From: a virus
DNA length: 64,000 nucleotides
Reading direction: 5' to 3' (one strand)
Virus record (IMG/VR): IMGVR_UViG_3300028844_002785
Coordinates: 1-64,000 of that record
The notes under the pieces are model-generated. The model had not been told where the DNA came from and searched no databases. It saw nothing but the letters and a program-made list of their open reading frames with translations. The position numbers and the translations under genes are program-made. The stretch's first letter is position 1, and each line of letters begins with the position of its first letter. Shown here piece after piece: positions 61,804 to 64,000 of this stretch.

Positions 61804-62187
61804 ATGGAACTTAAAGACTGGTTGAACTCTATTAATCAATCAAAAATTAACTTGATTGATGAAGACTATGGTACAGAAAAAGATTATCCCCCATTCATTA
61901 TCAATAAGTGTATGTCTGGTTTTATAGACACAGTTCTTATCGCTAATGAAATGAATATTCATTCTGATCTTTCAAAGAAGATGCAATATGATTTTTTTAT
62001 AAATATTGTGAGACCGAAAAAAAGATTTTCTCCATGGTTGAGAAAAGAAAAACTTGACACCCTAGAACTCATCAAAAATTATTATCATTATAATGATGAG
62101 AAAGCCAGAAGTGCTCTGAGACTTTTATCGGAAGAACAAATTGAATTTATCAAACAAAGGATGAAAACTGGAGGAAAAAATGAGTGA
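61804..62187 (+). CDS. gp62: Clamp loader subunit gp62
   Basis: Motifs YPPFIINKCMS, ANEMN, QYDFFINIVRPKKRFSPW. Confidence 0.93.
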   Translation: MELKDWLNSINQSKINLIDEDYGTEKDYPPFIINKCMSGFIDTVLIANEMNIHSDLSKKMQYDFFINIVRPKKRFSPWLRKEKLDTLELIKNYYHYNDEKARSALRLLSEEQIEFIKQRMKTGGKNE

Positions 62188-62614
62188 AGTTCTGGAGTAC
62201 AATTGGTCGCCTGATAAAATGGTTGAGGTGACACTCAAGGAGCCTGATGATTTTCTGAAGGTTCGCGAGACTCTTACTCGTATCGGTGTTGCATCACGTA
62301 AAGAAAAAAAGATTTATCAGTCTTGTCATATTTTGCATAAACAAGGTAAGTATTATATCGTTCACTTCAAAGAGTTGTTTGCTCTTGATGGTAAAAAAGC
62401 AAATCTTTTTGTAAATGATATTCAACGTAGAAATCGTATTGCTCAGTTGTTATCTGACTGGGGGTTGGTTGATGTAGTAGAATCTTCTATGGTTGAAGAT
62501 TGTGCTCCTCTAAGTCAAATTAAAGTTCTTTCTTATAGAGATAAAGGTGAGTGGACTTTAGAAAGTAAGTATAATATTGGTAAAAAGAAAACAACTACTA
62601 CTCAGTCAGTATAA
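62180..62614 (+). CDS. regA: Translational repressor RegA
   Basis: Motifs DDFLKVRETLTRIGVAS and CHILHKQGKYYIVHFKELF. Confidence 0.97.
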   Translation: MSEVLEYNWSPDKMVEVTLKEPDDFLKVRETLTRIGVASRKEKKIYQSCHILHKQGKYYIVHFKELFALDGKKANLFVNDIQRRNRIAQLLSDWGLVDVVESSMVEDCAPLSQIKVLSYRDKGEWTLESKYNIGKKKTTTTQSV

Positions 62615-63111: not shown

Positions 63112-63140
63112 AAAAAAAGAGAGGGTTCTTAACCCTCTCT
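63112..63140 (-). terminator. Rho-independent terminator of the riboswitch/DUF4278 transcript
   Basis: A-tract plus agagagggtt-ctt-aaccctctct. Confidence 0.85.
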
Positions 63141-63153
63141 GTGAAGTAAGTTA

Positions 63154-63321
63154 TCACTTTGTATACAGATGACCGCGATAGCAAAATGTACCATGGGTCT
63201 CTTTTGATTCTACACAACGAGTAGAGTACTCAACACCACGATATGAGGTGTGTGTAATCTGTGCGTCGTGAAGTGCAGATGCTTTGTTGATCTGCTTCTT
63301 GATCATGTTTAGTGTGTTCAT
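63154..63321 (-). CDS. DUF4278-family small protein, 55 aa (MNTLNMIKKQINKASALHDAQITHTSYRGVEY...FCYRGHLYTK)
   Basis: Two YRG motifs; AGGAG Shine-Dalgarno at 63329-63333; downstream of the glutamine riboswitch. Confidence 0.8.
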   Translation of the reverse strand: MNTLNMIKKQINKASALHDAQITHTSYRGVEYSTRCVESKETHGTFCYRGHLYTK

Positions 63322-63354
63322 TGTGTTACTCCTAAAGTAATGAGGGTTTTTAAT

Positions 63355-63589
63355 CCCCGTTCCTTCAGTCGTGTGCGTCCCAATACCATTGACATTCTGG
63401 TGCTGAGTCCTTAAGGGTCTCAACTAACTCAATCTTAAGCTGATTGTTAAGATCATTATTGTTCTCAATCTTCAGCATGATAGCATCAGTTTGAGTACAG
63501 GTGAGTGTTGTATAGAATAATAGTTCTAGCATGGGATGAACGGCTCCGTTCCGCGACTTACTTGCGTCCGATTTCTCGGATGAACGACA
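63355..63589 (-). ncRNA. Double glnA-type glutamine riboswitch
   Basis: Minus strand reads CGUUCAUCCGAGAAAUCGGACGCAAGUAAGUCGCGGAACG-GAGC-CGUUCAUCCCA[~150 nt]UGGGACGCACACGACUGAAGGAACGGG: two CGUUCA-stem-ACGCA...GGAACG units. Confidence 0.82.
63365..63532 (-). CDS. 55-aa ORF nested in the riboswitch (MLELLFYTTLTCTQTDAIMLKIENNNDLNNQLKIELVETLKDSAPECQWYWDAHD)
   Basis: Hand-translated, open for 56 codons; GGAG lies 11 nt upstream of the AUG. Confidence 0.65.
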   Translation of the reverse strand: MLELLFYTTLTCTQTDAIMLKIENNNDLNNQLKIELVETLKDSAPECQWYWDAHD

Positions 63590-63594
63590 GGTCT

Positions 63595-63623
63595 ATTATA
63601 GACCTTATATAGTATTTAGTCAA
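63595..63623 (-). promoter_or_regulatory. Sigma70 promoter TTGACT-N17-TATAAT driving the riboswitch transcript
   Basis: Plus-strand agtcaa at 63618-63623 and attata at 63595-63600. Confidence 0.85.
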
Positions 63624-63680
63624 GTATAAATAATTATGTGTCTTTCGTGCGGCACACTCTACATTCGGAAAATACCATTT

Positions 63681-63712
63681 AATGGTACGGGTTTCGCACC
63701 GTACCATTTTTT
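63681..63712 (+). terminator. Rho-independent terminator
   Basis: aatggtacgg-N8-ccgtaccatt followed by a T-tract. Confidence 0.75.
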
Positions 63713-63784: not shown

Positions 63785-64000
63785 ATGACGGGACTCACAC
63801 GTTATACGTCCAGTGACATGGGCAAAATTCTTGATGCTGTAGGAAAATATAGTGTCGGACTTGATGATGTTTTCCACAGGTTACATTCATATGGTATGGA
63901 TAATCCTGGTGGTTCATATCCTCCATATAATATTGTAAAAGAATCGAACGTTAAATGGCGTATCGAACTAGCACTGGCTGGATGGTCAAGGGATGACATT
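63785..64000 (+). CDS. hsp20: Small heat-shock protein Hsp20 (5' part; runs off the window)
   Basis: Hand-translated MTGLTRYTSSD...SYPPYNIVKESNVKWRIELALAGW; AAGGAG Shine-Dalgarno. Confidence 0.92.
   Translation, partial: MTGLTRYTSSDMGKILDAVGKYSVGLDDVFHRLHSYGMDNPGGSYPPYNIVKESNVKWRIELALAGWSRDDI

Follow-up and report, generated by a model that had tools for sequence, protein, structure and literature searches.

How a complete protein-coding gene can be accommodated within a hairpin of a metabolite-sensing RNA, and what this implies for folding and translation on the same mRNA, is the question raised by a short minus-strand region of the 64,000-nt stretch of DNA analyzed here (the window), which belongs to an 87-kb contig of a T4-like cyanomyovirus. 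Among cultured phages, Synechococcus phage S-MbCM7/ACG-2014h is the closest at this locus, with 86% DNA identity. The region comprises a unit of about 475 nt that runs from a promoter through a glutamine-aptamer RNA, a 55-codon open reading frame (ORF55) and a DUF4278/IF17-like gene to a terminator. Our preferred reading, to which we assign on the basis of sequence comparison a probability of roughly 0.55, is that the leader of this small cyanophage transcription unit would be a variant glutamine riboswitch with interlocked cores and with ORF55 in its inner hairpin, in which folding and translation would exclude each other and whose loops would act as insertion sites.

The unit, for which all coordinates refer to the minus strand, has a sigma-70-type promoter at 63595–63623 (TTGACT-17 nt-TATAAT, 11 of 12 consensus matches), and the predicted transcription start near 63588 coincides with the first base of the aptamer, the Rfam match beginning at this same position. 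No NtcA box (GTA-N8-TAC) was found near the unit's promoter. ORF55 (63365–63532, 55 codons plus UGA) is separated by a 45-nt spacer from the downstream gene (63154–63321, 55 aa), the spacer containing an AGGAG (63329–63333) as ribosome-binding site of the latter, and the unit ends at an intrinsic terminator (63118–63140). In agreement with the first-pass annotation, the gene downstream of ORF55 is of the DUF4278 (IF17-like) type: it scores 20.7 bits (E 5e-4) against Pfam PF14105, which is below the curated cut-off of 25.3 bits, and matches phrog_545 with E 6e-36. The gene at the same position in phage S-SSM5 (T4-GC 660) is annotated as DUF4278, this downstream type being different from the phrog_545 gene of the window. 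Metatranscriptome contigs from three runs of two studies span 63176–63624 and a fourth run contributes parts only, these contigs showing neither transcription nor ends nor strand.

Judged by its conserved elements, the leader is a genuine glutamine-aptamer RNA. At gathering thresholds Rfam gives no match in the entire window; the first of two aptamer-like units reaches 26.3 bits with the glnA model RF01739 (E 0.004 for the 1.2-kb region searched), so that the gathering score of 35 bits is not attained by the window sequence, and the second unit, which is split by the ORF, is not detected by the Rfam search in the window. The comparison with and without the insert is made possible by natural homologues, as the leaders of Bellamy and ACG-2014f precede the same downstream gene and have a 4–5-bp hairpin with a tetraloop in the place of ORF55. 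These insert-less leaders are recognized by the glnA model, with 34.5 bits in Bellamy, just under the threshold of 35, and 41.1 bits in ACG-2014f, which is over it by way of a composite alignment. The second unit of the insert-less homologues scores 27–32 bits with the Downstream-peptide model RF01704, and a pattern scan recovered at least 120 insert-less copies in metagenomic and viral contigs, with stems that covary freely. In Syn9, where both loops are filled, there is no Rfam match at E 1 or better.

The elements that define this aptamer class are present at the locus. Both strands of the P1 helix CGUUC:GAACG occur twice, together with the trailing G, and these positions are invariant in 57–59 of the 59 aligned sequences. 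The outer P2 is found with many covarying stem variants, and the inner hairpin varies freely among insert-less copies. The E-loop AGUA/GAA around P3 at a three-way junction is provided by the composite fold only. The nucleotide classes that contact glutamine, namely the CGUUC:GAACG helix, the CGC strand and the trailing G, are kept in both cores (contacts from PMC6698751); in solved structures the CGC strand forms a long-range pair with the G that follows GAACG (PMC6698751). The pattern CGTTCAYCC occurs twice in the 64 kb, both times at this locus, for an expectation of 0.33, and the 3'-half pattern likewise has two occurrences in the 87-kb record, both at this locus; since each motif is found only at these two places in window or record, the aptamer halves are not due to chance.

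The nested layout can be read directly from the sequence. The 5' piece CGUUCA-UCCCA occupies 63542–63532, the 5' strand of the inner hairpin being UCCCA at 63532–63536, and its final A is at the same time the first base of the ORF55 start codon (63532–63530), so that the proposed overlap between AUG and hairpin strand holds. The 3' strand UGGGA lies at 63378–63382, and the gap of about 150 nt between the two strands is indeed filled by ORF55 (63532–63365). UGGGA encodes the Trp and the start of the Asp codon of ORF55, with all three codon positions frozen; it is followed by the linking strand of the inner core, CGCA (63374–63377), within the Asp-Ala codons, and by the 3' strand of the shared P3, CGACU (63367–63371), whose U begins the stop codon and which shows compensatory changes. 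The GAA of the 3' half of the E-loop (63364–63366) is found in the second unit only and overlaps the UGA stop (63365–63367), relatives reading UAA/AAA at this position, and it is followed by the 3' strand of outer P1, GAACG, with the next G (63357–63362; role of the G from PMC6698751). As had been claimed, the last codons W-D-A-H-D come from UGGGACGCACACGAC, and the UGA shares bases with the GAA of CGACUGAAGGAACG; the conserved stretch UGGGACGCACACGACUGA encodes all five of these codons as well as the stop. The start and the C-terminal codons of ORF55 are therefore dual-use sequence, serving RNA and protein alike, and the same flanks surround the ORF in all of the approximately 175 related loci that have both flanks. 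A GGAG is present 11 nt 5' of the AUG as described, within the loop of the inner helix P1'. Its proposed role as a ribosome site did not hold up, as the motif is not conserved and reads GGAU or GGUU in many lineages.

ORF55 itself is a real protein-coding gene. Using tblastn it was recovered from 314 cyanophage records, always at full length and with identities down to 29%; the matches are annotated as T4-GC 430 or as Syn9 gp197, its homologue in that phage, and the protein matches phrog_504 with E 6e-25. We gathered 183 related loci, 180 of which carry complete ORF55 copies, and every one of these (180/180) is open over 49–56 codons. Its median pairwise dN/dS is 0.27, with 99% of pairs below 1, variability increases from the second to the first to the third codon position, and many hydrophobic columns have a fixed T at the second position. 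In the codons read from the aptamer (Trp-Asp-Ala) the third positions are frozen too, which is the signature of a second constraint acting at the RNA level. The AlphaFold model of the protein is a two-helix hairpin (pLDDT 83) with two conserved cysteines in the sequence; no match was found in Pfam, Foldseek had no PDB match to the model with an E value under 4.6, and the matches in the ESM Atlas were unnamed clusters only. The idea that an Asn/Gln stretch might act as a stalling element is not supported: this stretch belongs to the alignment columns that vary most, and S-SSM5- and P-SSM2-type homologues lack it. Likewise, leader-peptide attenuation is characterized by conserved, consecutive codons for the amino acid that is sensed, and ORF55 has no such run.

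The hairpin that closes around ORF55 is conserved together with the gene. In every sequence type the long-range stem is paired, over 4–11 bp, and in most lineages it covers the whole AUG, as for example in UCCCAUG with CAUGGGA. In one lineage a double compensatory change converts UCCCA:UGGGA into UCCUC:GAGGA, which provides the covariation that the first-pass annotation had proposed to look for in this stem, and here the otherwise conserved Trp of the protein is replaced by Glu. Taken together, the intact homologues, the dN/dS values and the insert-less controls substantiate the central claim that a complete protein-coding ORF under selection is nested in a hairpin of an aptamer RNA.

The overall fold differs from the one first proposed. 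According to the comparative data the two units are probably not tandem aptamers standing side by side; rather, two cores would be interlocked and share a single P3, as favoured by the covariation of P3, by the composite alignment and by a base-pair flip in the inner helix. The 5' strand of outer P1, CGUUC (63582–63586), is followed by the outer P2 hairpin UCCGA-GAAA-UCGGA (63567–63580), which lies in the Rfam match and shows rich covariation and ORF inserts across loci, and by the linking strand CGCA and the AGUA of the E-loop 5' half (63559–63566, AGUA at 63562–63559; role from PMC6698751). Next come the 5' strand of the shared P3, AGUCG (63554–63558, partner 63367–63371, with compensatory changes), and the inner helix P1', G-GAACG-G-AG-C-CGUUC (63538–63552), a local hairpin that appears in the MFE fold and undergoes the G-C/C-G flip. 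AGUA is present in unit 1 only and GAA in unit 2 only, so that each unit alone is incomplete for the glnA type. In fact, the highest-scoring Rfam alignment (41.1 bits) combines the two units: the 5' strand, P2 and CGCAAGUA of unit 1 are joined, through a P3 stem spanning 41 nt, to GAAGGAACG of unit 2. In P3 (AGUCG, 63558–63554, with CGACU, 63371–63367) G-C pairs change to A-U at two positions, giving GAUCG:CGAUU, with a G-U intermediate in one locus, and AGUCA:UGACU. In the extension of P3, all P-SSM2-type sequence types recovered carry a U-A/A-U swap (36 loci and 3 further loci of the same two kinds; 10 versus 3 in the 59-sequence alignment), a C-A mismatch remaining in the P3 of P-SSM2-type phages. 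A diverged paralogue within one contig has a 7-bp P3, GAGCAUA:UAUGCUC, that differs at all positions and is complementary at 7/7.

It must be considered that the units might nevertheless be two independent glnA-type aptamers, each with its own P1 and with ORF55 in the second P2 loop. Each of them contains CGUUCA, a hairpin, CGCA and GGAACGG, Rfam aligns them singly at 26–34.5 bits, unit 1 could fold first by the order of transcription, and tandem glnA RNAs have been reported (PMC2864571). However, this arrangement leaves the distribution of AGUA and GAA and the P3 covariation between units unexplained, and it conflicts with the inner helix. In 4 of the 59 aligned sequences, and in 6 ORF55-bearing loci plus S-PRM1, the G-C pair of this helix is flipped to C-G; the flip keeps the local hairpin but would break the innermost pair of both tandem P1 helices. 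Whereas independent aptamers would be self-complete with P1 helices of their own, the innermost tandem P1 pairs are broken in 4–5 sequences whose inner helix is compensated. In the ligand-binding helix, the paper on the glutamine-II structure names two base pairs as less conserved, and the flipped pair is among them (PMC6698751). Also, unit 1 contributes its 3' strand and unit 2 its 5' strand to a local hairpin, and the spacer between them is fixed at 2–4 nt in nearly all loci, as for a hairpin loop. When scored on the 59-sequence alignment, the nested structure is 98.2% paired with 5 doubly changed pairs, a level that 0 of 500 shuffles reach, as opposed to 1 doubly changed pair for the tandem structure in the same sequences, this being the shared hairpin pair. 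There is almost no variation in the four P1 strands, so that nested and tandem P1 pairing can be told apart only by the P3 evidence and by a single compensatory event, whose spread may be due to recombination. On these grounds we regard two independent aptamers as unlikely, and nested and tandem folds may alternate or interconvert during transcription. Energy folding of the 293-nt leader of the window (z = −2.8) yields the inner helix and a closure across the ORF but neither P3 nor outer P1, and the insert-less Bellamy element folds no better than its shuffles (z = 0.14). Two other pairings were discarded: that of the 3' hairpin strand of unit 1 with the 5' hairpin strand of unit 2 shows no covariation, the strands of the same unit being those that covary, and GUUCAU:AUGAAC, between the aptamer 5' strand and the DUF4278 start in the MFE fold, has no match at other DUF4278 starts (AUGGCA, AUGACU).

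The same loops harbour other genes, and this bears on a reading in which ORF55 is a passive passenger: the loops would be insertion-tolerant safe harbours within conserved sequence, in which small genes, homing endonucleases among them, settle and spread by recombination via the flanks, the nesting having no regulatory purpose beyond co-transcription and the riboswitch acting on untranslated mRNAs or less well. Indeed, three unrelated ORF families occupy the loops. In S-RIM8, S-RSM4 and S-PRM1 the hairpin of ORF55 contains an unrelated 64-aa ORF (phrog_13397), which ends in the same frame on the aptamer-encoded D-A-H/N-D-stop and has no similarity to Syn9 gp196, and in Syn9, S-TIM5 and 26 of 173 loci the first (outer) hairpin contains a 66-aa ORF (phrog_6471). 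Loops are found empty or filled in all four possible combinations, the outer loop of one contig (L077) contains an HNH_3 endonuclease gene in antisense orientation, a 182-aa ORF lies within another copy of the element, and an HNH gene adjoins the unit in S-TIM5 and S-TIM61; the free coexistence of insert-less and ORF-bearing forms fits a passenger as well as a regulatory design. A genome-wide scan for the junction pattern gave chance matches in unrelated bacteria and a single Cyanobium match within coding sequence, and was set aside. However, no nested sense ORF examined has a leader of its own, and the AUG is in, or a few bases from, the stem wherever the junction was read: that of the phrog_6471 ORF lies at, or a few bases from, the end of the 5' strand. 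The stops, too, are embedded in the aptamer, the one of phrog_6471 (UAA, UGA or UAG) being inside the 3' strand, with the 5' strand covarying with the stop codon used, and the stem across ORF55 often reaches over the whole AUG, with 7–11 bp. As a complete account the passenger reading is possible but less likely than the preferred one. How the inserts arose is well explained by it, and it may even suffice by itself; yet it explains origin and not function, and both it and the preferred reading can be true together. Far less probable is that the aptamer-like pieces no longer sense glutamine and are kept as gene-boundary signals, be it for RNA processing or stability, translation or recombination. 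The promoter-stem-loop cassettes of T4-type phages, which are recombination sequences, offer a parallel; moreover, the window units score under the Rfam thresholds, the sequence blocks are extremely conserved as DNA across genera, and contigs of different strains part exactly at the −35 box. Against such a role, the helices covary while the sequences drift, the nucleotide classes for glutamine contact are all retained in both cores (PMC6698751), and the unit always stands 5' of the IF17-like gene class that host glutamine riboswitches control (PMC6212724).

The preferred reading, a glutamine riboswitch with interlocked cores, would operate as follows. The outer core would be a canonical glnA aptamer made of P1 (CGUUC 63586–63582 with GAACG 63362–63358), P2, the E-loop AGUA/GAA and P3 (AGUCG:CGACU). 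P3 would open into an inner part consisting of GGAACGG, a short loop, CGUUCA, the hairpin and CGCA, in which we infer a circular permutation of the aptamer core that would also bind glutamine, and the inner hairpin UCCCA:UGGGA closes around ORF55, with the AUG in the stem and the last codons and stop in the aptamer. Since no separate leader precedes the nested ORF, ribosomes can land only on the 5' half of the aptamer (inner helix plus hairpin strand), and since the stop of the ORF lies in the E-loop, a terminating ribosome covers the 3' strand of outer P1 as well. Binding of a 30S subunit at the start codon of ORF55, like termination at its stop, would consequently require the inner hairpin, P3 and outer P1 to be opened. 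From this geometry we infer that translation of ORF55 and the folded, glutamine-bound state would be mutually exclusive on one mRNA.

The consequences for the downstream gene can be considered by analogy with the host. In the host, glutamine riboswitches act at the level of translation as ON switches of IF17-like (DUF4278) genes (PMC6212724), DUF4278 proteins being IF17-like, and ligand stabilizes P1, which has been proposed to melt an adjacent short helix that affects the ribosome site (PMC6212724, PMC6698751). At the phage locus a short helix lies directly after GGAACG and before AGGAG (63344–63358, Gs at 63358–63355 with CCC at 63346–63344), and it occurs in the covarying forms GGG:CCC, GGA:UCC and GGG:UCC; following the host model (PMC6212724), it is likely an expression-platform element. 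High glutamine would then stabilize the fold, hide the start of ORF55 and free the ribosome site of DUF4278, low glutamine or active translation of ORF55 would do the reverse, and the passage of ribosomes through ORF55 would reset the sensor. By this analogy, we put reciprocal control, with ORF55 off and DUF4278 on at high glutamine, at roughly even odds. The hairpin loops would be tolerated insertion sites in which small genes are gained, lost and swapped between phages. The most elaborate version, a reciprocal translational switch of two proteins by two interlocked glutamine-binding cores, with reset by the ribosome and with loops serving as cassette sites that also take up homing endonucleases, is put forward as a tentative scheme.

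Comparison with known systems delimits what would be new. The element resembles the glutamine-I riboswitch (glnA, RF01739; Synechocystis gifB/IF17 leader, PMC6212724) in CGUUC:GAACG, P2, the CGC/CGG strand, the AGUA/GAA E-loop around P3 and the trailing G, as well as in the downstream DUF4278 (IF17-like) gene and the short helix below P1 beside the ribosome site. It differs in that the phage P3 encloses a second, permuted core instead of a simple hairpin, in that the hairpin loops contain whole protein-coding genes and in that it is missed by standard scans, from which the nested genes and the interlocked fold hide it. With the glutamine-II riboswitch (Downstream-peptide, RF01704; PMC6698751) it shares the ligand-binding core and an association with very small ORFs, the CGCA-A-CGAC of the phage second unit resembling the type II consensus. 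However, the small ORF of type II lies downstream of the aptamer, whereas ORF55 is enclosed by an aptamer helix, and the phage architecture adds the E-loop and the three-way junction. Translated uORFs that overlap aptamers in Mycobacterium tuberculosis (bioRxiv 10.1101/2022.06.01.494293) are similar in that an ORF is translated within a riboswitch RNA and interference between ribosome and folding is possible; a paper on the interplay of B12 riboswitch and uORF in this organism is cited in 10.1101/2024.07.19.603033. Those are short leader uORFs overlapping the aptamer or platform, in contrast to a gene of 49–56 aa that is conserved at the family level, fills a hairpin loop and has its start and stop built into the stems. 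In group I introns, ORFs encoding homing endonucleases sit in peripheral loops. They have in common with the phage element that a loop pointing away from the core of a structured RNA can take up a whole gene, HNH genes being among the phage inserts, but the phage RNA would be a metabolite sensor in an mRNA leader from which nothing is spliced out and whose closing helix contains start and stop. The nearest precedents are therefore the short uORFs within aptamers of M. tuberculosis and the loop ORFs of group I introns, and no description of nested genes or interlocked cores was found in the literature searched, which did not extend to Ames & Breaker 2011 and Ren et al. 2015.

Riboswitches are thought to be rare in phages. 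A 2017 survey listed two glutamine aptamers only in cyanophage genomes (PMC5473149). The element described here is found in roughly 400 cyanophage records (419 by blastn of the region, 371 with the DUF4278-type gene and 314 with ORF55) and also in many metagenomic contigs. If the preferred reading is true, nature would here offer a clear example of conserved protein genes enclosed in their entirety by the helices of a metabolite sensor, and of one aptamer core nested, in circularly permuted form, within another. The element would link the nitrogen status of the host, in the form of glutamine, to the expression of small phage proteins and of a phage IF17-like protein that may inhibit the glutamine synthetase of the host, so that the control of host nitrogen metabolism by the phage would become directly testable.

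The inner aptamer hairpin, which in the window holds the 55-codon ORF55, is occupied in the related loci L188 (553-770; coordinates of collected loci are locus-internal), L189 and L192 (S-RIM8, S-RSM4 and S-PRM1) by a 64-aa ORF of phrog_13397, which is unrelated to ORF55 and terminates on the same aptamer-encoded D-A-H/N-D-stop. A whole gene is also found inside the first (outer) aptamer hairpin in many phages, being in Syn9 (L082:453-690) the 66-aa gp196 of phrog_6471; the same arrangement is observed in L032, L062, L090, L093 and other loci. The outer-hairpin gene has its stop codon within the stem, on the 3' side, and the sequence of the 5' strand covaries with whichever stop is present (UCUUA:UAAGA and UCUCA:UGAGA). 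In locus L077 (253-700) the outer hairpin loop contains a 406-nt insert with an antisense HNH_3 homing-endonuclease gene (Pfam E 9.5e-11).

Directly 3' of its first double aptamer, locus L078 carries a second, diverged one (905-1545), whose P3 helix (GAGCAUA:UAUGCUC) has a different base at each position compared with the usual P3 and yet remains fully complementary. Its outer hairpin encloses a 182-aa ORF, which by eye resembles HNH, and for which a Pfam search returned no match.

Analysis of the sequence around the end of ORF55 (63344-63367 and related loci) evidenced an association between its stop codon and the bases 3' of GGAACG: loci with UGA mostly have GGG there, partnered by CCC, and those with UAA have GA(C/U) or GGC, partnered by UCC. 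Common descent may account for this, as may a structural connection of the E-loop to the helix below P1. In a subset of phages, comprising L082 (880-905), L190 (740-790), L001 and about 20 other loci, the interval between aptamer and ribosome site contains an extra module of ~35 nt, absent from the window, in which ACGGAUCC is followed by a stem of 3 bp that covaries and is capped by a loop of four bases, usually GAAA, and then by GAGAAGGUUAA. Among the loci searched, the module had no Rfam match with an E-value of 1 or lower.

A terminator-like hairpin (63681-63708, plus strand) lies a short distance upstream of the unit's promoter, and the neighbouring plus-strand genes (62180-62614 and 63786-64000) resemble, by eye only, those for a translational repressor of the T4 RegA type and for a small heat-shock protein, in keeping with a T4-like cyanophage. 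Contigs from several metatranscriptome runs agree with the window as far as the -35 box (upstream edge 63624) and diverge beyond it, which suggests that promoter, riboswitch and gene move as a cassette among different genomic neighbourhoods.
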